Shown here one piece after another: positions 1 through 11,119 of a stretch of 32,000 nt of DNA (its first letter is position 1; the number at the start of each line of letters is the position of its first letter). The notes beneath the pieces are model-generated. The model worked only from the letters and a program-made list of their open reading frames with translations. It was not told the origin of the DNA and did no database searches. Position numbers and translations under genes: made by a program. This DNA is from Candidatus Saccharimonadota bacterium (GTDB lineage: Bacteria > Patescibacteriota > Saccharimonadia > Saccharimonadales > Saccharimonadaceae): assembly GCA_020160975.1 (NCBI GenBank), contig JAIUPJ010000001.1, forward strand, positions 450,001 to 482,000, in the 5' to 3' direction.

Positions 1-257
1 TTCATGAACTTTGCCTGATTACGAATATACCGTTCAGACTTCTCGCGCAGTTCGTCGGTCATGTCATACCGCTGCAGGCGTGCCCCAAACCAGAGAATCT
101 CGACGGGCTTGTTGTCGCTAAGGAGCTCTTCGAGCAGTCCGCGAAAATCAAAGGCCTGAATGATCTCACGTGCAGCGCGCTTTCCTTGCGCATCAGCAAG
201 AAGTGTCCGTATACCATACACGAGATTTTCGCCATCGATCAACACCACTCGTCTCAT
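1..257 (-). CDS. NYN/LabA-like domain protein, N-terminal 85 codons (gene runs off the window start)
   Basis: Absent from the ORF track because it has no stop inside the window. The reverse complement from the ATG at 257-255 reads MRRVVLIDGENLVYGIRTLLADAQGKRAAREIIQAFDF... A short hydrophobic strand followed by IDGENL is the usual opening of NYN-type domains. Family call is from motif memory only. Confidence 0.4.
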   Translation of the reverse strand, partial: MRRVVLIDGENLVYGIRTLLADAQGKRAAREIIQAFDFRGLLEELLSDNKPVEILWFGARLQRYDMTDELREKSERYIRNQAKFM

Positions 258-606
258 CTTTACATCATACAACAAAAGACCTCGCGAGGACCGAAATCCA
301 AGCGAGGTGCTGTACCTGTATTGTACCGTATCATAAACGATGCGTCAACATTGCAATAATCATTTGTCAATAGCAGTAGCGTTATATCTCTGTTATGCTT
401 CATCTCTTTGATGACAATAACACAACATAGGATAACGTCTACCCATAAGTATGAAAAATCATAGTTGACAATCTAATGATTTGCAATCATAAGAACTATC
501 CCTGCGCTGCCCTTTTCGTAGCGATCGAACTAGCTACTTGTGTGATGAATATCACAGACCATCAGAGTCGGCGGGGGTATACTAAGAAGCACAAAGGAGG
601 TGGAAG

Positions 607-708
607 ATGAATACAGATAATCAAGAAACCCCACCAGATAGCGGCGAAGTTCGGTCGTGTAATTGCTGCAAGTGTTGCACTTGCAATGACGGATGCGACT
701 GCAAATAG
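607..708 (+). CDS. 33-aa cysteine-rich micropeptide (metallothionein-like; function unknown)
   Basis: Too short for the ORF track. ATG at 607 is preceded by AAGGAGG with 6-nt spacing. It reads MNTDNQETPPDSGEVRSCNCCKCCTCNDGCDCK*, with 8 Cys in the last 16 residues. A strong hairpin terminator follows at 740-770. Confidence 0.5.
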   Translation: MNTDNQETPPDSGEVRSCNCCKCCTCNDGCDCK

Positions 709-739
709 TTCACTCTGCACTAGAGTGCACCCTCGCAAT

Positions 740-770
740 AATACACGGCCTACCTAGGTCGTGTATTTTT
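740..770. terminator. Bidirectional hairpin terminator between the micropeptide ORF (+) and the CYTH gene (-)
   Basis: AATACACG (740-747) pairs with CGTGTATT (760-767). There is an inner CCTAGG palindrome and a T-run at 766-770. It sits between convergent genes. Confidence 0.6.
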
Positions 771-778
771 ATGTATCG

Positions 779-1366
779 CTATAACGCCGCACCAAATTCC
801 TGCGGAACCGGGTCGTCAAACCGTACCAGCGGAATGTCGATAACGCCGCGCACGGACATAGCTGGATAGACCATTCGGTACACCACATCCACACCGCCAA
901 ATACCGCCTCATCCCAGCTGAATCCAAGTATTGCCGCGGCCTCGCGGATAGAGGCTTCGTTGTCACCCTCGATTTCTATATACGGAGGCATCCAGGGCCA
1001 TACATCGATCACCACCTCAACATCCCCAAGCTTCCAGGTTTCGCGACGCGACTCTTGGTAGGTGTGAAAAATCATGCCACTGGCTTCCAGTAGTGCCTTA
1101 GTAGCATCAAAATCATCCACGGTTGTTTCAATCTCGTTCGCCGCCTCGATGCCAGTTTTTAAATGCTGCTTGTAGGTAAGCGTCACTTTGTTTCCCTCAT
1201 CGCGTAGGCGCAAAAAAGCATCCTTTGCCGCCATGTCAGGAGTTTCCATCAGTGCACGGCGCATCAATCGCATCGGCTGCTCGCACACCGCGCCAGCAGC
1301 AAGCAGACGCTGCTGGATCGCATCAATAGTAATATTGATGAACTTTACTTCGATTTCCGTCTTCAT
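779..1366 (-). CDS. CYTH domain protein (triphosphate tunnel metalloenzyme / class IV adenylate cyclase family)
   Basis: 195-aa ORF. The N-terminal MKTEIEVKF carries the ExExK signature of CYTH domains. Length and alternating beta-strand pattern fit the family. Confidence 0.8.
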   Translation of the reverse strand: MKTEIEVKFINITIDAIQQRLLAAGAVCEQPMRLMRRALMETPDMAAKDAFLRLRDEGNKVTLTYKQHLKTGIEAANEIETTVDDFDATKALLEASGMIFHTYQESRRETWKLGDVEVVIDVWPWMPPYIEIEGDNEASIREAAAILGFSWDEAVFGGVDVVYRMVYPAMSVRGVIDIPLVRFDDPVPQEFGAAL

Positions 1367-1369
1367 ATA

Positions 1370-2416
1370 CTATTTGTCATCGTTCTCGGCTGGCTCGTTC
1401 TCGGTGCCATCACTCGTTTCTTTGAGCTTTGCCTCGGCGTTACCGGCATTGACTTCGTAACTCGTGTTAGTACTTTCAAAGAAGTTAACCAGCTCATAAG
1501 TATCATTGGCCGTCGCCATCCATTTTGCAGGATTAGAGACATTGTAGTGCGGCTCAAATCCGAGCTCCTCGAGACGGCGGTCGGTTAAGTACTTCACATA
1601 CTGGTTAATGTAGTCAGCGTTGAGGCCCAGAATACCATTTGGCAGCAATGCACGGTTATACTCTTCCTCCATCGCCACGCCGTCAAGAATCATTTGCTTA
1701 ATCTCCGCGGCAAATTCCTCATCTTGCAAATCTTCGTTTTCTTCGATCGTAGTCAAAATCAGGTTGATGCCGAACTTGAGATGGAGCGACTCGTCACGCA
1801 CGATCCAGTCAATCAAGCTGCCGAAGTTACGTAACAGATTTCGTTGTCGGAAACTGAGCGCAACCATAAAGCCACTATAGAACCAGATGCCTTCAAGAAT
1901 AATATTGTACGCAACCAAGTTACGGATGAAGTCTTTTTTGCCATCAGTCGTGGTGATGTCCATCGTGTCTTCTGTCATGCGACGGATAAATTTGGTCTCA
2001 AACTCTTCCTTTTTTGCCATTACCGCTTCGTCAACATGCGCCGAATACGCTTTTTCGCGGTCGATCGGGAAAGTATCGAGCACATACTCAAACGCCATAC
2101 AGTGGTTTGCCTCTTCCCACATTTGCTTGGCAAGATAGAGATGGCATTCTGCCGCGTTCACATAGGGGTAGACACCAAAGGCCAGTGCCTTGTTCACTAG
2201 CAGCTCGTTTGGGTTGAAGTAGCTCATGAGGAACGTCACGGCGTGTCGCTCTTCATCGCTCATTTTTTCCCAGTCAGCCAGATCCTGCGCTAATTGAATT
2301 TCATTGGGAAACCACGTGTTTGCGACCGCCTGGTCATACAGATCCATAGCCCATTGATAGTGAATCGGCTTGAGTAGCAAACCGTCTTGAATTCCTGCAC
2401 CTAAGATTTTCCCCAT
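1370..2416 (-). CDS. nrdB: Ribonucleoside-diphosphate reductase beta subunit (R2), class Ic-like metal/radical site
   Basis: 348-aa ferritin-like R2 with two ExxH motifs (EEANH, RDESLH) and ILEGIWFYSGF. Strong RBS AGGAGGGG lies upstream of the ATG at 2416. It is downstream of nrdA on the same strand. Confidence 0.9.
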   Translation of the reverse strand: MGKILGAGIQDGLLLKPIHYQWAMDLYDQAVANTWFPNEIQLAQDLADWEKMSDEERHAVTFLMSYFNPNELLVNKALAFGVYPYVNAAECHLYLAKQMWEEANHCMAFEYVLDTFPIDREKAYSAHVDEAVMAKKEEFETKFIRRMTEDTMDITTTDGKKDFIRNLVAYNIILEGIWFYSGFMVALSFRQRNLLRNFGSLIDWIVRDESLHLKFGINLILTTIEENEDLQDEEFAAEIKQMILDGVAMEEEYNRALLPNGILGLNADYINQYVKYLTDRRLEELGFEPHYNVSNPAKWMATANDTYELVNFFESTNTSYEVNAGNAEAKLKETSDGTENEPAENDDK

Positions 2417-2491
2417 AATCCCCTCCTATTGTTATCTCACTCTTGTCTTTACTGTAGCAATGTTGCCCAAGTATTTGCGAGCATAAGCAGG

Positions 2492-2767
2492 TTACGCTAC
2501 CCGTCTCTTCGGAACGTTCGCACCAATTCCACCCATATCAACACCAAACTCATCGTCAATCTGTGCATACTGGTGGAATTTCTTTCCAAGGAGAGCTATT
2601 CGTTCTCGGTAATTCTGTTCGTCGCCAAGTCGCTCCTCTCCCCCCACAACTGGCAGCCCAGCGGCATCAATCGTGCGGACGGGCAATCGTTTCCCTTCGT
2701 CGCCCACATGAACGAACTGACCAATCTTTGGCACTTCTTCGATACTCTTTGGTCGCATTACTGGCAT
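2492..2767 (-). CDS. Hypothetical 88-91-aa protein inside the nrd operon (no Cys)
   Basis: ORF-track 91 aa (MPVMRPKSIEEVPKIGQFVHVGDEGKRLPV...). The more likely start is the second ATG (2758-2756), which overlaps the upstream stop as TAATG and suggests translational coupling. No family recognised. Confidence 0.4.
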   Translation of the reverse strand: MPVMRPKSIEEVPKIGQFVHVGDEGKRLPVRTIDAAGLPVVGGEERLGDEQNYRERIALLGKKFHQYAQIDDEFGVDMGGIGANVPKRRVA

Positions 2768-2931
2768 CCCTCACACATCGTGAGATCTGCTGGATCGATT
2801 GGCGCGGTTGCCACACCTCGCGAGCGGGCCTCAGCATCGGCTGTCGCCTGCACTTCTTTCATCGCTAAATCAATTGCCGCTAGTTTTTCTTCGAGTGTCA
2901 TTTCATCATTTAGGATTGCGCTTGCGTTCAT
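2758..2931 (-). CDS. 57-aa protein ending in a C-terminal CxxC (..PADLTMCEGCQ)
   Basis: Too short for the ORF track. ATG at 2931-2929 is preceded by GGGGGA. It reads MNASAILNDEMTLEEKLAAIDLAMKEVQATADAEARSRGVATAPIDPADLTMCEGCQ*. Its stop overlaps the start of the next ORF. Confidence 0.45.
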   Translation of the reverse strand: MNASAILNDEMTLEEKLAAIDLAMKEVQATADAEARSRGVATAPIDPADLTMCEGCQ

Positions 2932-2945
2932 GTTGGTCCCCCTTA

Positions 2946-3026
2946 TTATTTATCATCTGTTAGATTTACGTTACATTCGCTGCAGTTCATACAGCACTCA
3001 CAGCTACAGTTGCATTTCTTATCCAT
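2946..3026 (-). CDS. 26-aa cysteine-rich micropeptide directly downstream of nrdA
   Basis: ATG at 3026-3024 lies 11 nt after the nrdA stop (3038-3040), with GGAG 7 nt upstream. It reads MDKKCNCSCECCMNCSECNVNLTDDK*, with 7 Cys in 26 aa. It has the same CNC-type Cys spacing as the 607-708 peptide. Confidence 0.4.
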   Translation of the reverse strand: MDKKCNCSCECCMNCSECNVNLTDDK

Positions 3027-3037
3027 CTGTCATCTCC

Positions 3038-5446
3038 TTATACTGCCTGTTTCTTGGCAAAGCCGAAGCCGACTTTTTTGCCGCTTGTCTTGGCGATTTC
3101 GTCTGATTTATTGACTTTCACCGTACTCTGCTCTGCCTGATGCCGTGGCTTCATGTGGAGATAGTACGTTGTCTTGAGGCCGCGCTTCCATGCCTCCATG
3201 TAGACTTTTTCCATGTCGTCGATACTACGCGTGTCGAGATACATATTGCGGCTAATTGCCTGATCAACCCATTTTTGCGCCCTGGCCGCAACTTCGATAA
3301 AGGCAAATGGCGAGAGCTGGAAACACGTCTTGTACACATCTTTTAGCTCCTGTGGCACCGCGGCAATATTCGTCAGGTCGCCCTGCTCAATTAGCAGCTG
3401 CTCTTTTACTTCGTCCCAGATGCCAAGATTTTTCAGGTCGCGCACGAGATTGGTGTTGACCTCGAGGAATTTGCCATTCAACGTACTGCGACTAAAGATC
3501 TGCCCAAATTGCGGATCGATACCTGGCGTGGTGCCGGCCACATGAGCGATATTCGCTGTTGGCGCCACCGCCATCAGTGTGGCATTGCGCATTCCCTTAG
3601 TGGTTTTCTTGCGCAGCTTTTCCCAGTCAAGACGCTTCTTTCGCGTCACATCAACTGACACGCCGCGATCGATCTCCAGCAAGTCAACCGTATCAATTGG
3701 CAATTCGCCCTTGCTCCAGCCACTTCCCTTAAAGTCAGGATAGCTGCCGCGAGTCTTGGCTAGATCAGCCGACTCGTCGATCGCATAGTAACTAATAAAT
3801 TCTGCCAGGCGATCCATCGTATCGTACGCTTCCTCGCTTTCATAGCTATGGCCAAGTTTTTCGATGATGTCGGTGAAGCCCATGATGCCGAGGCCAAGCG
3901 CCCGCGTAGTGTTGATCGAATTCATCGCCTCGGGAATTGGCGTGTCGGTGATGTCGCATAGGTTGTCGAGCTGACGAATCGCACTCCTTGTGGCCGCTTC
4001 GAGTCGCTTCCAGTCCCATTCTTTGGTCTCGGTATCAAGGAACGAGCTGAGGTTGATACTAACCAGATTACACACAGCGATGTTCTTCTCATCCTGCGGC
4101 AAGGTGATCTCGGTGCAGAGGTTGCTCAGGTGGATAGTGCTGACATTGTTGTTGAGCGCGCGAACATTGATGGTATCCTTCCATGTCAGCCACGGATGAC
4201 TCGTCGCCTGTAGCTGCGTCAACATTTCGCGGTAGAGTTGCCGCGCGGGTAATTTCTTAAACGCGCGCAGCTTCCCGGCTTCAGCCATTCCAACATACTC
4301 GTTATAGCGCTTGGCGAAGTCTTCACCGTAGAGATCAGGTAGGTCAGCTACTTCGGCTGGGTCAAACAAATACCAATCCGTCTCAGCAGCCACACGTCGC
4401 ATAAACTCATCGCTGATAAACACGGCTGTATTAGCAAAGCGCGTACGGAAGTACGGGTCGCCAGAGTTTTGACGAAGCTCGAGAAACTGCGGAAAGTTAA
4501 GGTGCCAGTTCTCCATGTAGAGCGCAGCGGCGCCAGCTTTTTTGCCCTTTCGACTGACGGCAAACAGCGCCGTGTCAATCATTTTCATAAATGGCAGCGG
4601 GCCCGTGCTGACTGTATTTGTTGTCTTAACAGGGCTGCCCATGGCGCGGAGCTTATTCATACTGATACCGATACCGCCCGTACCCTTGGCAATCCACATC
4701 ACATCACGAACGGATTTCGCGATTGATTCCATGTCGTCTTGCACTTCTATCACAAAACAGTTGCTCAGCTGCGGGAACGAACCCCCGGCATTGACCCGCG
4801 TACTGCCACCCGGCAAGTAATCAAGACTGCTCATGTGCTTGTAGAAGTCCAGTGCCGCGCCAGTGGGGTCTTTTTCGTTAAAACTCAGTCCCATGGCGAT
4901 ACGCATGTGGGTGAACTGTGGCGTCTCAAATGGATCGCCGTTTTGTTTGCGCAGTGCGTAGCGATTTTTGTTAGTGATTACTCCTAGATACTTACTGAGG
5001 CCGTCTCGGCTCGGATCGAGTGCAGCCGCCAATTTCTTGATGTCGAAGACCTTTGGGTTAGCCATGCGCTTGTCGAGCAAACCTTCTTTGACGCCAAATT
5101 TCAGGTACTCCGCAAATTTCTTTTCATGCAATTTCTTCAGCTCTTCATCCGTTTCGTAATCACCAAGAATGTTCTTATAAATATTCTTGAGAAGCAATCT
5201 CGCTGCGATGGTATCGAAATCCGGATCATCTTTGACGTTCTGTAGCGCCGTATGAATCACCGCCTCATCAAGCTCCTCGCTGGTGATGCCGTCAAACAAT
5301 GTCAGTTGTAGCTCGGTCGCGACTTGCACGACTTTTTGGATCTGATCTGGCAAGCCTTCACTGGCCCTCACAAGAGCCAGATTGATCTTGTTGGCGTCAA
5401 ATGGTTCGCGGGTGCCGTCGCGTTTTACCACATAGATATCGCTCAT
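3038..5446 (-). CDS. nrdA: Ribonucleoside-diphosphate reductase alpha subunit (R1) with N-terminal ATP-cone
   Basis: 802 aa. ATP-cone opening VVKRDGTREPFDANKI. Active-site motifs LSNCFVIEV, SNLCTEITLP and CNLVSINL. The C-terminal tail has no Cys pair (see findings). Confidence 0.95.
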   Translation of the reverse strand: MSDIYVVKRDGTREPFDANKINLALVRASEGLPDQIQKVVQVATELQLTLFDGITSEELDEAVIHTALQNVKDDPDFDTIAARLLLKNIYKNILGDYETDEELKKLHEKKFAEYLKFGVKEGLLDKRMANPKVFDIKKLAAALDPSRDGLSKYLGVITNKNRYALRKQNGDPFETPQFTHMRIAMGLSFNEKDPTGAALDFYKHMSSLDYLPGGSTRVNAGGSFPQLSNCFVIEVQDDMESIAKSVRDVMWIAKGTGGIGISMNKLRAMGSPVKTTNTVSTGPLPFMKMIDTALFAVSRKGKKAGAAALYMENWHLNFPQFLELRQNSGDPYFRTRFANTAVFISDEFMRRVAAETDWYLFDPAEVADLPDLYGEDFAKRYNEYVGMAEAGKLRAFKKLPARQLYREMLTQLQATSHPWLTWKDTINVRALNNNVSTIHLSNLCTEITLPQDEKNIAVCNLVSINLSSFLDTETKEWDWKRLEAATRSAIRQLDNLCDITDTPIPEAMNSINTTRALGLGIMGFTDIIEKLGHSYESEEAYDTMDRLAEFISYYAIDESADLAKTRGSYPDFKGSGWSKGELPIDTVDLLEIDRGVSVDVTRKKRLDWEKLRKKTTKGMRNATLMAVAPTANIAHVAGTTPGIDPQFGQIFSRSTLNGKFLEVNTNLVRDLKNLGIWDEVKEQLLIEQGDLTNIAAVPQELKDVYKTCFQLSPFAFIEVAARAQKWVDQAISRNMYLDTRSIDDMEKVYMEAWKRGLKTTYYLHMKPRHQAEQSTVKVNKSDEIAKTSGKKVGFGFAKKQAV

Positions 5447-5579
5447 AAATCCTATTCCTTTTTGTTATAGTTGCCTTATTCGACACAACACCTCCCCAGG
5501 TTCATGCAAGAAAAATCGTCCACTAGCGTGGCGAACTAGTTACAAAACCTCCTTGCAAATGTGTCTATTTGTTTGAACT

Positions 5580-5633
5580 ACTACATATGTAGTGTCTGCA
5601 CATGACTATAAGCGCTATATATAGCTATTTCAA
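5580..5633 (-). promoter_or_regulatory. nrdA promoter with two NrdR-box-like palindromes
   Basis: On the minus strand: -35 TTGAAA (rc of 5628-5633), a 17-nt spacer, and -10 TATAGT (rc of 5605-5610). Palindrome GCTATATATAGC (5614-5625) fills the spacer. Palindrome ACTACATATGTAGT (5580-5593) sits just downstream of the -10. Centres are 33 bp apart. Both resemble the NrdR box consensus acaCwAtATaTwGtgt. Confidence 0.6.
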
Positions 5634-5721
5634 GTCATTTTTTTCATTTTGGTCATGTTTTTTTCACCACACATCTTTTCACCTCTTGTGAAGACTATCT
5701 AGCGCTGATTGTAACTTTTAC

Positions 5722-5739
5722 TACGCTATATATAGCGTA
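5722..5739. promoter_or_regulatory. 18-bp perfect palindrome TACGCTATATATAGCGTA (third NrdR-box-like site)
   Basis: Perfect inverted repeat with the same CTATATATAG core as the 5614-5625 box. It lies about 85 bp upstream of the + ORF at 5822. Confidence 0.35.
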
Positions 5740-5821
5740 TATATTATTTATGGTTGTCCAAACTTAGACAAACTCTCTTAATGAACTTCAACGGCAATAT
5801 CTGGCACACGAAGGAGCTACA

Positions 5822-6100
5822 ATGAACCCATGGCTTGCCGCGTACCTTGGCGCGCACATAACCGCAACGATCGCCGTCCTGACAGCATGGAACTACTACC
5901 TGGCAACCTCAAAGTTGCATCCCACTAGGCCTGGTCGATCGCTCTGGAGGTTCGTCGCAGTAGTACTCACACCAGTCTTCCTCGTGGCCACTATCGGCTT
6001 CCTCTGGGCTCTCAATCTTTTCTTCGAGATCTGGGACAAGGGAGTCAAGAACGGCTTTCGGGCGAACAGAAATGAAATGCGACGTGCTATGCGCCTTTAG
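5822..6100 (+). CDS. Small membrane protein, two predicted TM helices
   Basis: 92-aa ORF. RBS GAAGGAG lies 5 nt upstream. Two hydrophobic stretches (AAYLGAHITATIAVLTAW, FVAVVLTPVFLVATIGFLWAL). A structured terminator follows. Confidence 0.5.
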   Translation: MNPWLAAYLGAHITATIAVLTAWNYYLATSKLHPTRPGRSLWRFVAVVLTPVFLVATIGFLWALNLFFEIWDKGVKNGFRANRNEMRRAMRL

Positions 6101-6180
6101 GCTCACCTCGGAAACAGACTCGCCGATGAGGTTCAATTCTCATCAGCTTGAGCTCCGTCGGTGAGCCTGTTTCTTTTCTC
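6099..6180 (+). terminator. Multi-stem hairpin terminator
   Basis: Outer stem AGGCTCACC (6099-6107) pairs with GGTGAGCCT (6160-6168). Inner hairpin GATGAG/CTCATC. Followed by GTTTCTTTTCTC. Confidence 0.45.
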
Positions 6181-6209
6181 CCCACAGAAATTTCTAATAG
6201 CAAGAATAG

Positions 6210-6229
6210 CAAGGGTGCAACCCTTAACA
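6210..6229. repeat. REP-like hairpin, left copy
   Basis: GCAAGGGTGCAACCCTTAAC; 6-bp stem AAGGGT/ACCCTT. Confidence 0.75.
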
Positions 6230-6240
6230 GATGAGATAAC

Positions 6241-6849
6241 TTATCTATTTGATAGTAAGCCTACTAATTCAGATGCAACTTTTCTTATGTTTTTATCTGC
6301 ATACTCAGCAACAAACTGCCGATATTGCTCGGGTCTCATCTCACCCGCCAAATCATTGCGCACCCAATCATTGTCTCCGGAGCCCACATAGTCTCGATAA
6401 CTTGACCATCTATACGTTTCATACTTCTGTGGATTCAGATGTATGTATCGAGTGATATGCGCCAGATACGCTTCGTTGTATATCCACGATGCTCGATATT
6501 GACTCTGGAACACATGCCCCTTAGACCGATATTTTTTGTTGTAATACATTGAATACCGCGTGGACACAGATTTCATGTAGCCCTGCATTGCCTGCTCATC
6601 CATCTCTTGATACAACAACAGATGAAAGTGTGTGCCCATCAGACAATACGAAACAATTTCAACATCATACTTTGGATACTCCCGCCCTTTCTCTGCTGAT
6701 TCACAGCTGCTCATATGCTCCTGGATAAGTGTCAAAAAGTATTCACGATCCTCGCTATCGCCAAACAGCTTTCTTTCTCCCGATGCACGATTATATACAT
6801 GATAAAAAGCCGGTGCTCTATATTGCTTTACGACATGCTTTGTTGGCAT
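6241..6849 (-). CDS. REP-associated tyrosine transposase (RayT; IS200/IS605-like Y1 HUH family)
   Basis: 202 aa. N-terminal YHVYNRASGERKLF, HUH motif in CLMGTHFHLLLYQ, and the catalytic-Tyr helix AHITRYIHLNPQK. Confidence 0.8.
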   Translation of the reverse strand: MPTKHVVKQYRAPAFYHVYNRASGERKLFGDSEDREYFLTLIQEHMSSCESAEKGREYPKYDVEIVSYCLMGTHFHLLLYQEMDEQAMQGYMKSVSTRYSMYYNKKYRSKGHVFQSQYRASWIYNEAYLAHITRYIHLNPQKYETYRWSSYRDYVGSGDNDWVRNDLAGEMRPEQYRQFVAEYADKNIRKVASELVGLLSNR

Positions 6850-6879
6850 GAAATCATAATATGCTAAGTTATATCATCC

Positions 6880-6899
6880 GTTAAGGGTTGCACCCTTGC
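6880..6899. repeat. REP-like hairpin, right copy (inverted)
   Basis: GTTAAGGGTTGCACCCTTGC, the exact reverse complement of 6210-6229. Confidence 0.75.
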
Positions 6900-6920
6900 A
6901 TATTGTATAATGGTGAAAGT

Positions 6921-7667
6921 ATGACGATGACAAATATTATTTCGATCAAAAATTTCCGGATGCAGTTTGGGAAAGCGACGGTTATCAAGGATTTATCTTT
7001 CGATGTGAAGAGGGGTGAGACGTTTGGCTTTCTGGGCAGCAATGGCTCTGGCAAAACCACTACCATTCGCGCCCTACTAGGCATTTATCAGCCGACTAGC
7101 GGCGATCTGCTCATCGACGGCAAGCCCTACACTGTTTCGGGCGATATCAAGCTCGGCTACCTCCCTGAAGAGCGTGGTCTCTACAAGAAAGAGTCGGTAC
7201 TCGACATCATGACCTACTTTGGCCAGCTCAAAGGCATGAGCCGCGCCGATGCACGCAAAGCCTCGCTTGCCTACCTGCGACGCGTCAAACTTGAGGACAA
7301 AGCCACGACGCGGCTCGACAAGCTCTCTGGCGGCCAACAGCAAAAGATCCAGCTTGGCATCACCATCATGGACGACCCCGAACTGCTCATTCTCGACGAG
7401 CCAACCAAGGGCTTTGATCCGGTCAACCGCAAGCTCCTGATGGATATCATTGAAGAGCATCAGGCTAAAGGCGCCACGGTAGTCATGGTGACACACCAAA
7501 TGGAAGAAGTTGAACGTCTCTGTGACCGGATCATCCTACTGAAAGACGGCAAGGCTCATGCGTATGGCACCATCGCAGAAGTAAAGAAGAAGTTTGGCAA
7601 CAAATCTCTCGATGATATCTTCCTCAAAGTCTACGGTGATGAAAACGCTACAGAGGAGGAGGACTAA
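6921..7667 (+). CDS. ABC transporter ATP-binding protein (ABC-2/NatA-like)
   Basis: Walker A GSNGSGKTT, signature LSGGQQQK, Walker B LLILDEP. I prefer the ATG at 6921 (MTMTNIISIKNF) to the track's non-ATG start at 6888, which lies inside the REP hairpin. Confidence 0.9.
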   Translation: MTMTNIISIKNFRMQFGKATVIKDLSFDVKRGETFGFLGSNGSGKTTTIRALLGIYQPTSGDLLIDGKPYTVSGDIKLGYLPEERGLYKKESVLDIMTYFGQLKGMSRADARKASLAYLRRVKLEDKATTRLDKLSGGQQQKIQLGITIMDDPELLILDEPTKGFDPVNRKLLMDIIEEHQAKGATVVMVTHQMEEVERLCDRIILLKDGKAHAYGTIAEVKKKFGNKSLDDIFLKVYGDENATEEED

Positions 7668-10267: not shown

Positions 10268-11119
10268 ATGAGTGAAGTTGTAGATAAAGTTAAGTATCGA
10301 AGACCGTTGAATAAGCAACAGCTACGAACACTGTTTGTTTTATATTGGTATCGGTTCTGTACGAGTAAGCAGATTGCAATCAGTCTGAAACGGTCAGACC
10401 CGAAAAGCATACAGAACAAGCTCAAGGTTCTGGAAGATCAGGAGTTGATTGGCAAACGTTATGACAAAACCTACAAGCTAGCAGGTCGCCCTGCCGAGTA
10501 TTACATAACGCCAAAGGGTGCAAGAGTACTAGAAAAGGTACAGCCAGACACAACGAACCTGTGGGCAACCAAGAGTTTATACAAAAACAAGACGGTGTCT
10601 AACGAGTTTCTGAAGCATACCGTTACTGTCGTGGATGTGGCACAACGTTTGAGAATACTGTATGGCAACAGGCCGTGGATTCTGCCAAAGAGTTACATAG
10701 CAAAATACAGTTTCTATCCAAAATGGGCACCGGACTTGCATTTCAAGATACCAGCACGGAGCGAGACGCCGACAAAGCACTATTTCGTTGATATATGGGA
10801 CGGCACGAAACCATTCTTCGTCAGCGTTAGGAAAACCAGAAACTACTCCAACTTCAAGGAGAATGGTGATTGGCAAGAAGATGAACCGTACCCTGCAATC
10901 CTCGCGGTATGCGATGATGCCTACACCCAAAAGAAACTCAGCAGACAGATGAAACGGATTCTTGATGATTCGTGGGACGATGATTTAGTATTTGCTACGA
11001 CAACGCGGAAACAGCTCGATGAGGCAACGAAACCAACGGATAAGATATGGCTCCGAGTTAGGCTTGATGATGAGGCGGAACTTGTGAGCCTCAAAGGCCT
11101 TATTACGTATGATGCCTAG
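10268..11119 (+). CDS. Replication-relaxation family-like wHTH protein
   Basis: 283 aa, RBS AGGAG. The N-terminus LNKQQLRTLFVLYWYRFCTSKQIAISL...KLKVLEDQELIGKRY...YYITPKGARVLEK matches the pattern I recall for plasmid replication-relaxation (PF13814-type) proteins. Not verified by search. Confidence 0.5.
   Translation: MSEVVDKVKYRRPLNKQQLRTLFVLYWYRFCTSKQIAISLKRSDPKSIQNKLKVLEDQELIGKRYDKTYKLAGRPAEYYITPKGARVLEKVQPDTTNLWATKSLYKNKTVSNEFLKHTVTVVDVAQRLRILYGNRPWILPKSYIAKYSFYPKWAPDLHFKIPARSETPTKHYFVDIWDGTKPFFVSVRKTRNYSNFKENGDWQEDEPYPAILAVCDDAYTQKKLSRQMKRILDDSWDDDLVFATTTRKQLDEATKPTDKIWLRVRLDDEAELVSLKGLITYDA

Follow-up and report, generated by a model that had tools for sequence, protein, structure and literature searches.

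In a Saccharibacteria genome (Candidatus Saccharimonadota bacterium, GCA_020160975.1), the catalytic subunit of the class I ribonucleotide reductase (RNR), NrdA, lacks the C-terminal cysteine pair that normally recharges the enzyme, and a conserved 57-residue mini-protein (p57) encoded in the same operon is proposed to be that redox tail, made as a separate polypeptide. The same arrangement occurs across an enzyme family, and some phages carry the mini-gene on its own. We analyzed a 32,000-nucleotide stretch (the window; contig JAIUPJ010000001.1, positions 450,001 to 482,000). All elements of the locus are on the minus strand:

3038..5446 (-), nrdA, class I RNR catalytic subunit (802 aa) with an ATP-cone; the active-site cysteines are C230 (4757-4759), C444 (4115-4117) and C459 (4070-4072), and the YY radical-transfer pair is at residues 761-762
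3041..3154 (-), NrdA C-terminal tail (residues 765-802), without cysteine and with a net positive charge and a conserved GFGFAKK motif at 3050-3070
2946..3026 (-), 26-aa Cys-rich ORF (MDKKCNCSCECCMNCSECNVNLTDDK) with RBS TAAGGAG
2758..2931 (-), p57, with its own RBS (GGGGGA) 6 nt upstream
2818..2895 (-), p57 residues 13-38, a predicted amphipathic helix
2761..2805 (-), p57 residues 43-57, APIDPADLTMCEGCQ, a disordered acidic tail with the C53-x-x-C56 pair (2764-2775) followed by a terminal Gln
2492..2758 (-), 88-aa Cys-free ORF whose start overlaps the p57 stop (TAATG)
1370..2416 (-), nrdB, the radical-generating subunit, of class Ic type (R2c)
779..1366 (-), CYTH-domain protein, the last gene of the cluster

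NrdA possesses the ATP-cone, all-alpha and barrel domains (PF03477, PF00317, PF02867), scores 1291 bits against NCBIfam NF005101 (PRK06539; cut-off 988) and best matches PDB 5im3 (E 6e-186). It ends ...TTYYLHMKPRHQAEQSTVKVNKSDEIAKTSGKKVGFGFAKKQAV, and its cysteines are at 230, 444, 459, 497 and 708. The preliminary description had noted that the last ~45 residues lack Cys; in fact, none occurs in the last 94. C230, C444 and C459 are the only cysteines conserved in 71 relatives, and together with Y761/Y762 they are invariant in these relatives and in the outgroups. The three tail cysteines present in all six outgroups are missing, and no compensating internal cysteine exists. NrdA is nevertheless not truncated. 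It keeps about 42 residues after the YY pair and has a new, conserved basic end. The tails of 74 Saccharibacteria loci have no Cys and all carry GFGF, and every one of these loci has p57. The literature states that all, or almost all, class I NrdA proteins carry their own redox tail (PMC6187632, PMC9669993), as in E. coli, whose tail ..DDGCESGACKI (C754/C759) was verified from NC_000913.

The mini-protein is a real gene. A database search returned 1087 hits at E<=10, the top 120 of which are all 57-80 aa long with a nearly invariant C-terminus, and the homologues form 136 clusters at 50% identity, nearly all of them stand-alone proteins of 45-90 aa. No Pfam, NCBIfam or PHROG family matches it. 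p57 was found in 308 species-level genomes, always linked to nrdA/nrdB, in two different gene orders. Some family members, however, are not next to nrd genes, including 40 phage loci and the contigs carrying the members P0253 and P0254. The dN/dS is about 0.12 overall, 0.13 in the helix and 0.05 in the tail. It is most unlikely that the ORF is merely a leader or spacer whose translation tunes nrdB expression. Its small size, its position inside an operon and the overlapping stop and start codons on both sides of it in the window would fit such a role, but conservation acts at the amino-acid level with saturated synonymous change (pS 0.71 against pN 0.22), the Cys and terminal Gln are invariant, and the gene is conserved in three positions relative to nrdA and nrdB and as a solo gene in phages.

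AF2 predicts a single helix at residues 13-38 (pLDDT about 80) followed by a tail without secondary structure (pLDDT 55-69). The helix contains the conserved core MTLEEKLAAIDxAM, and M11, T12, L13, L17, A19, I20 and A23 are invariant. The protein ends P-x-D-P-x-D-x-x-x-C-x-x-C-Q-COOH, so that its CxxC lies one residue, not two as first described, from the C-terminus. The nearest NrdA proteins that still carry a fused tail (Pseudomonas, Legionella and other bacteria, and some phages) end in C-E-[A/S]-C-Q, with one in C-Q-A-C-Q. These tails read ..CSIDNPDCEACQ, ..CSILDPNCEACQ, ..CRIDDPECEACQ, ..DDCEACQ, ..DGCQACQ, ..GGTCESCQ and ..EEGCESCQ, and p57 ends ..PIDPADLTMCEGCQ. Divergent p57 members even keep the third upstream Cys (..FACPIDPAERALCEACQ). 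The similarity to fused tails covers only about 5-12 residues, so gene fission is plausible but not proven. No NrdA-p57 fusion or intermediate form was found.

A sister group comprises high-GC, probably actinobacterial, genomes with class Ic NrdB. Here, 78 of 78 NrdA proteins lack tail cysteines, and in 77 of 78 loci a 21-42-aa mini-ORF ends ..PVDPMD.LQC.SCQ, with the spacing P-x-D-P-x-[DE]-x3-C-x2-C-Q. The one exception ends 77 nt after nrdA. The dN/dS of this motif is 0.08. Linkage persists despite rearrangement, as four arrangements were seen: nrdA-p57-nrdB, nrdA-nrdB-(PNPOx)-p57, a mini-ORF upstream of nrdA, and a mini-ORF whose start overlaps the nrdA stop (54 of 75 loci).

The overlap raises the possibility that the tail is in fact joined to NrdA by programmed frameshifting, readthrough or post-translational ligation. 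In the high-GC relatives, the mini-ORF lies in the same relative frame (+2) in 69 of 75 loci, and this frame is often open far upstream. However, the +2 frame follows simply from TAATG / ATGA / GTGA stop-start overlaps, with SD-like sequences in 65 of 75 loci, and open off-frames are expected by chance at 60-70% GC. In the window, a 26-aa ORF and 106 nt separate nrdA from p57, which has its own RBS. In many Saccharibacteria nrdB lies between the two genes, in three loci (L143, L144 and L149) the mini-ORF is upstream of nrdA, and phages carry p57 alone. We therefore consider this explanation very unlikely.

We infer that p57 is the redox shuttle tail of this class Ic reductase, acting in trans. 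The preliminary description had proposed a tail supplied in trans, or a dedicated small redox partner, and the idea is well supported, although biochemical and structural evidence is lacking. Neither of the tests it named, conservation of the ORF under purifying selection and the use of other cysteines by the NrdA clade, refuted it. In the proposed mechanism, after each turnover the active-site pair C230/C459 is left as a disulfide, which in ordinary class I enzymes is reduced by the flexible C-terminal Cys pair, itself re-reduced by thioredoxin or glutaredoxin. Here, the acidic tail of p57 is proposed to enter the active-site cleft, reduce the disulfide and then be re-reduced by a thioredoxin-fold redoxin.

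The N-terminal helix is proposed to hold p57 on NrdA, possibly on its basic GFGFAKK end, a candidate docking element. p57 has a net charge of -6 to -10, whereas the last 16 residues of NrdA have +2 to +6 and outgroup tails are acidic. FGF is present in 41 of 41 unique pairs, and GFG is present in 78 of 78 high-GC relatives but absent from 6 of 6 outgroups with fused Cys tails. This docking mode remains an inference, the NrdA model was unusable (mean pLDDT 42), and docking through the helix cannot be general since the helix is missing from the 21-42-aa versions.

Redoxin genes accompany the mini-gene in some loci. In locus L090, trxB-trx lies divergently adjacent to nrdA-p51-nrdB, although thioredoxin genes are adjacent in only one lineage. 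A glutaredoxin gene (PF00462) immediately follows phage-borne p57 in 7 of 40 phage loci, from two lineages. p57 itself is not a redoxin of the Trx, Grx or NrdH type, which have a thioredoxin fold of about 75-110 aa with CxxC at the start of helix 1. It has no PF00085 or PF00462 hit, and its CxxC is at the extreme C-terminus.

Alternatively, p57 could be a regulator or redox sensor that binds NrdA, with the active site reduced directly by a redoxin or a low-molecular-weight thiol. Small disordered RNR regulators such as Sml1 and Spd1 appear to have precedent in eukaryotes, class II RNRs without tail cysteines may use small-molecule reductants (Burnim et al., bioRxiv 10.1101/2022.04.23.489257), and phages carrying p57 alone could be manipulating host RNR. 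We regard this as unlikely. An inhibitor would not be expected to be translationally coupled to nrdA in 54 of 75 loci or strictly co-inherited with it, the most constrained part is precisely the CxxC-Q terminus shared with catalytic tails, and reviews state that redoxins cannot reach the active-site disulfide directly (PMC4390871).

The best PDB hit of NrdB (PF00268) is 1syy (E 2.7e-66), probably the Chlamydia trachomatis R2c. In this alignment EEANHCMAF aligns with EEAVHTHTF and NPNELLV with STAESLV, placing Phe at the Tyr122-equivalent and Glu at the Asp84-equivalent position. Every NrdB examined is the Mn/Fe type by sequence, with Phe at the Tyr site in 66 of 66 high-GC loci. Nramp or ZIP metal transporters follow the operon in 11 of 80 loci, and also in L090 and another locus, L087. 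This keeps a metal-related role open, in which p57 would deliver or buffer Mn/Fe (or Zn) for assembly of the NrdB cofactor and NrdA would be re-reduced in some other way. LTMCEGC may loosely resemble the MxCxxC motif of metallochaperones. However, such a role appears improbable, as it leaves the missing NrdA cysteines unexplained and the terminal motif equals that of fused NrdA tails, not of any metallochaperone. There is no HMA or other metal-binding family hit, and no beta strands are predicted, in contrast to the beta-alpha-beta-beta-alpha-beta fold of CopZ/Atx1, which carries MxCxxC in the first loop. Furthermore, Mn(II) and Fe(II) sites in R2 proteins use O/N ligands, thiolate pairs are poor ligands for Mn, and phage copies sit beside glutaredoxin, not beside metal genes.

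The closest precedent is the split class II enzyme NrdJa/NrdJb of Pseudomonas aeruginosa, in which the catalytic chain lacks the C-terminal redox cysteines and a separately translated chain encoded next to it mainly provides thiol-disulfide exchange through its C-terminal Cys (PMC4520616, PMC9669993). That enzyme is B12-dependent, whereas the partner of p57 is a class I NrdA with an NrdB. p57 is a largely disordered peptide without detectable homology to NrdJb, its gene order is variable, and the gene also travels alone in phages. It is thus an analogue of NrdJb, and we found no description of such a tail for class I. In class I enzymes with fused tails, the yeast tail of one protomer is reported to serve the neighboring protomer, already acting in trans within the dimer (Zhang et al. 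2007, cited in PMC6382339). Redoxins can be encoded with or fused to RNR genes, as for NrdH and the Grx fused to NrdB in Facklamia ignava and Francisella (PMC6187632), but these reduce the NrdA tail, whereas p57 is proposed to be the tail itself, one step further down the relay. The large subunit of Aeromonas phage Aeh1 (nrdA-a / nrdA-b) is also assembled from separately translated pieces, but that split lies inside the catalytic core, was caused by insertion of a homing endonuclease gene and does not concern the redox tail (PMC3045599).

We tentatively speculate that the whole NF005101 family of class Ic reductases (Saccharibacteria, the high-GC group and some of their phages) depends on a free, exchangeable peptide dithiol of 21-57 residues as an obligatory electron shuttle, a peptide cofactor that standard annotation mostly misses. 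Phages would carry their own copy, sometimes together with a glutaredoxin, to drive the host reductase during infection, suggesting a new type of auxiliary gene acting on host dNTP supply. If p57 is confirmed as the tail, in-vitro reconstitution of these enzymes, including those from oral Saccharibacteria and probably from Actinobacteria, would fail or need DTT unless the peptide is added. A likely essential gene is probably missing from many annotations. The arrangement would also be a clean case of a disordered functional tail becoming an independent gene that then moves around the operon and into phages, and a minimal system for studying how the tail finds the active site and the redoxin.

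The 88-aa ORF has only 2 homologues among 5.8 billion proteins and is lineage-specific and not a conserved part of the system. Many relatives have nrdB 22-62 nt after p57, and others carry unrelated or very divergent ORFs at this spot. The 26-aa ORF between nrdA and p57 is a sporadic accessory of unknown role without family hits, and a homologue with identical Cys spacing lies at the same place in one locus (L016) only. The CYTH-domain protein (PF01928, E 7e-11) is found downstream of nrdB by tblastn in about 14 of 80 loci.

The window is a Saccharibacteria (Patescibacteria) chromosome segment that also carries valyl-tRNA synthetase, TsaD, MurE-like and FemAB-like genes. Identical proteins are recorded from 'Patescibacteria group bacterium' and 'Candidatus Saccharibacteria' on a 973-kb contig. 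The nrd cluster is encoded on the minus strand in the following order:

5446..3038, minus strand: nrdA, 802 aa
3026..2946, minus strand: Cys-rich ORF of 26 aa
2931..2758, minus strand: ORF of 57 aa, here called p57
2758..2492, minus strand: ORF of 88 aa, whose ATG shares an A with the p57 stop (TAATG)
2416..1370, minus strand: nrdB
1366..779, minus strand: CYTH-domain gene

NrdA ends ..GKKVGFGFAKKQAV, and its five cysteines are at positions 230, 444, 459, 497 and 708. p57 has an RBS and ends ..APIDPADLTMCEGCQ. The E. coli tail used for comparison, ..DDGCESGACKI, was checked directly. The preliminary description, which noted that NrdA lacks the C-terminal redox cysteine pair while a separate 57-aa ORF ends in a CxxC, is therefore correct in every material point. 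Upstream of nrdA, three AT-rich palindromes at 5580-5593, 5614-5625 and 5723-5738 (ACTACATATGTAGT, GCTATATATAGC, ACGCTATATATAGCGT) resemble NrdR boxes, which suggests that NrdR may control the operon. An IS200-like Y1 transposase gene (6241-6849, minus strand) lies next to the nrd promoter region, and a Replic_Relax (replication-relaxation) family gene (10268-11119, plus strand) lies further on, hinting at an integrated mobile element between about 9 and 13 kb. A search of Rfam found nothing in window 1-7000.

p57 is a gene. It has 1087 database hits, of which the best 120 are 57-80 aa long with a nearly invariant N-terminal segment (MNASxIINDxMTLEEKLAAIDxAM), a variable middle and a nearly invariant end, APxDPADLTMCEGCQ. 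An exhaustive profile search identified 136 clusters at 50% identity, virtually all of which are stand-alone proteins of 45-90 aa that end in C-x-x-C-[Q/E]. Over 66 distinct genes, dN/dS is 0.12, with 0.13 in the helix, 0.19 in the linker and 0.05 in the tail, and synonymous sites are saturated. This conservation at the protein level excludes a mere leader ORF. AlphaFold2 predicts one helix (residues 13-38, pLDDT about 80) followed by a disordered tail. Pfam, NCBIfam and PHROGs have no family for p57.

p57 is linked to the reductase. A scan of one genome per species found it in 308 species, and the 80 best loci are all labeled Saccharibacteria apart from three labeled only Patescibacteria, one labeled only 'bacterium' and one labeled Verrucomicrobiia that is probably mis-binned. 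Wherever the flanks are long enough, p57 is co-oriented with and next to nrdA and nrdB. Two gene orders occur, nrdA-p57-nrdB as in the window and nrdA-nrdB-p57. In 26 of the 80 loci (L035, at 4542-4940, and 25 others, of oral-type Saccharibacteria), the second order has a PNPOx-like gene (FMN-binding split-barrel, PF01243) of 132-135 aa between nrdB and p57 that could encode a flavoprotein partner of the system; such a gene was also noted in locus L087 (116-523). In several loci p57 starts 9-25 nt after the nrdA stop and nrdB follows 22-62 nt later, and the minimal unit is therefore nrdA-p57-nrdB.

The other two small ORFs of the cluster do not belong to the conserved system. The 88-aa ORF was rejected as a partner because it has only two homologs in 5.8 billion proteins. 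Other Saccharibacteria carry unrelated or very divergent small ORFs at the same position, which also start at or in the p57 stop, and this looks like a fast-evolving slot in the operon. The 26-aa Cys-rich ORF, MDKKCNCSCECCMNCSECNVNLTDDK, lies directly after nrdA and was considered as a required part by analogy with the class II zinc finger. It was rejected because it is present in only 2 of about 75 distinct loci; its homolog lies at the same spot in one other Saccharibacteria locus (L016, 4902-4979) and has identical Cys spacing (C-x-C-x-C-x-CC-xx-C-xx-C). A further Cys-rich ORF of 33 aa, MNTDNQETPPDSGEVRSCNCCKCCTCNDGCDCK, at 607-708 on the plus strand is followed by a hairpin plus T-run. Both Cys-rich ORFs have a strong RBS and look metallothionein-like, but neither these two nor the 88-aa ORF has a family in Pfam, NCBIfam or PHROGs.

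All 74 Saccharibacteria NrdA tails that could be read lack tail cysteines and carry GFGF followed by basic residues. In an alignment of 71 of these proteins with six outgroups, the only cysteines conserved in Saccharibacteria are the active-site C230, C444 and C459. The outgroups have three further cysteines in the tail that are all missing in Saccharibacteria, and no new internal cysteine has appeared. This rules out the alternative, raised in the preliminary description, that the clade uses internal cysteines. NrdA is not truncated, since about 42 residues follow the YY pair compared with about 30 in E. coli. However, the tail has changed character. Its last 16 residues carry a charge of +2 to +6 and an FGF motif in 41 of 41 unique pairs, whereas outgroup tails and p57 are acidic, with p57 at -6 to -10.

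The closest solved structure is P. aeruginosa NrdA (5im3, E 6e-186). Full-length relatives of that type, taken from Legionella, Aureimonas, Pseudomonas, Acaryochloris, Ralstonia and Acinetobacter records, end ..CSILDPNCEACQ, ..CRIDDPECEACQ, ..CSIDNPDCEACQ, ..DDCEACQ and ..DGCQACQ. Phage NrdA proteins at 37-39% identity to the NrdA of the viral contig L143 end ..GGTCESCQ, ..GESCESCQ and ..EEGCESCQ. p57 ends ..PIDPADLTMCEGCQ, and divergent p57 members end ..FACPIDPAERALCEACQ and ..YACPIDPAERAQCEGCQ, with the third upstream cysteine just as in the fused tails. So the part that NrdA lacks is what p57 carries, down to the terminal C-E-x-C-Q-COOH, although the homology between p57 and the fused tails rests on a short motif. 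The outgroup operons have nrdA and nrdB adjacent, with no annotated ORF of this kind between them; the small ORF annotated in the Acinetobacter locus is labeled as a YajC translocase subunit. A profile search of 1.84 billion representatives for NrdA-p57 fusions found none. Its long hits are repeat proteins with many short matches, and all of the top 120 NrdA homologs are 726-810 aa.

The pattern is family-wide. NCBIfam places the window NrdA in NF005101, whereas P. aeruginosa NrdA is in NF005544. Two viral-database contigs (L143 and L144) carry an NrdA 60% identical to that of the window, together with WhiB genes. These NrdA proteins are again Cys-less and end ..KKGFGFASAKN and ..RKGFGFKSAN. 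They have a tail-only mini-ORF upstream of nrdA, MSNLFESSVDVVDGIVCPVDPMDLLNCESCQ and MAPQNKDNVDGYYVPQDPMDLLQCDSCQ. In L143 a 315-aa ORF with no Pfam hit separates the mini-ORF from nrdA, and in L144 (3001-6345) NrdA is interrupted by an insertion of about 300 aa, probably an intein, between residues 444 and 440 of the alignment. Other divergent p57 lineages show the same architecture, with nrdA(..GFGFAKRTNV)-p69-nrdB in locus L137 and, in locus L090, trxB-trx divergently adjacent to nrdA(..AFGFSFSK)-p51-nrdB-Nramp.

A metagenome scan with the NrdA of the viral contigs returned more than 586 relatives. The best 80 (L158-L237) have 47-71% GC (55% or more apart from the contigs nearly identical to L143/L149) and lie on contigs of up to 3 Mb, so they come from cellular genomes. 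Of 78 loci with a complete nrdA end, none has a cysteine after YYLH and all have GFG motifs. A mini-ORF ending P-x-D-P-x-[DE]-x3-C-x2-C-Q is carried by 77, and the remaining contig ends 77 nt after nrdA. The mini-ORFs end ..PVDPMD.LQC.SCQ, are probably unannotated and lie between nrdA and nrdB in 75 cases (e.g., L179 5451-5516 and L173 5452-5517). Their median size is 27 aa, with a range of 21-42, and an example is MNEEYYVPVDPMDELQCDSCQ. The dN/dS of the motif is 0.08, and the spacing P(-14), D(-12), P(-11), D(-9), C(-5), C(-2), Q(-1) is the same as in p57. The high-GC group has no close relatives in the plasmid or phage collections. WhiB genes on the related viral contigs L143 and L144 and an AraC-type regulator next to nrdB (L209) point to Actinomycetota, an assignment that is inferred.

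In 54 of 75 of these loci the start codon of the mini-ORF overlaps the nrdA stop (TAATG, ATGA or GTGA), and SD-like sequences are present in 65 of 75. A regulator or inhibitor role fits poorly with such translational coupling to nrdA. Programmed frameshifting that fuses the tail to NrdA was also considered, but recoding of this kind is excluded for the window by the gene arrangement and is unnecessary elsewhere.

Every NrdB in the high-GC set has Phe at the radical-Tyr position (66 of 66). The window NrdB does too, and its best structural relative is 1syy, apparently the C. trachomatis class Ic R2. Mn/Fe-type metal transporters often follow the nrd cluster (Nramp in loci L002, L003, L005, L009, L013, L017, L019, L025 and L090; ZIP in L001, L006, L008 and L087), which fits the Mn/Fe cofactor of class Ic NrdB. 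The R2c association and these neighbors suggest a metallochaperone role for p57. However, this does not explain the missing NrdA cysteines or the identity with catalytic tails, and neither family searches nor the predicted fold support it.

We propose, without experimental evidence or a model of the complex, that the p57 tail dithiol reduces the C230-C459 disulfide formed in each turnover and that a thioredoxin-fold redoxin then re-reduces the tail, as for fused tails (mechanism reviewed in PMC4390871). The p57 helix, with conserved L13, L17, I20 and M24 on one face, would tether the tail to NrdA. The new basic GFGFAKK end of NrdA is a candidate docking site, because it co-occurs with the detached tail and is absent from all fused-tail outgroups. 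This docking step is inference. An AlphaFold2 model of NrdA, run to see where the GFGFAKK end packs, had a mean pLDDT of 42 from an alignment of sequences at least 85% identical and was unusable. The short actinobacterial-type peptides have no helix, and they may bind differently, for example through the conserved aromatic residue before VPxDP, or may act as freely diffusing peptide dithiols.

The closest precedent is the split class II enzyme of P. aeruginosa, where NrdJb chiefly provides disulfide exchange through its terminal cysteines (PMC4520616). Such split enzymes account for many class II sequences without tail cysteines (PMC9669993). p57 is not homologous to NrdJb and belongs to a class I system. 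Literature searches for a split class I tail, for the motifs themselves and for Saccharibacteria or Actinobacteria RNR small proteins found nothing, although most subscription-journal papers were outside their reach and prior description cannot be excluded. We therefore regard the system as a class I counterpart of the split class II enzyme, with a peptide-sized tail subunit.

Phages also encode p57. Forty viral contigs (L097-L136, from IMG/VR; e.g., L119 4274-4659 and L122 6001-6588) encode p57 homologs with the helix and the tail intact, and no nrdA or nrdB is detectable within 6 kb. Their neighbors are endolysins, RecE-like exonuclease, NinG/Rap, a DNA polymerase exonuclease subunit, primase and RNA ligase. 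Three further family members sit among many small uncharacterized genes; two of them (P0219, P0186) have phage-type neighbors, and P0253 lies beside a restriction-modification pair. A gene that phages can carry on its own fits a factor that acts in trans on a host enzyme. In seven of the forty contigs, from two lineages, a glutaredoxin gene (PF00462, WCAFC) follows p57 within 2-190 nt. This redoxin neighbor fits a thiol-disulfide role, and the phage genes may form an auxiliary module acting on host dNTP synthesis.
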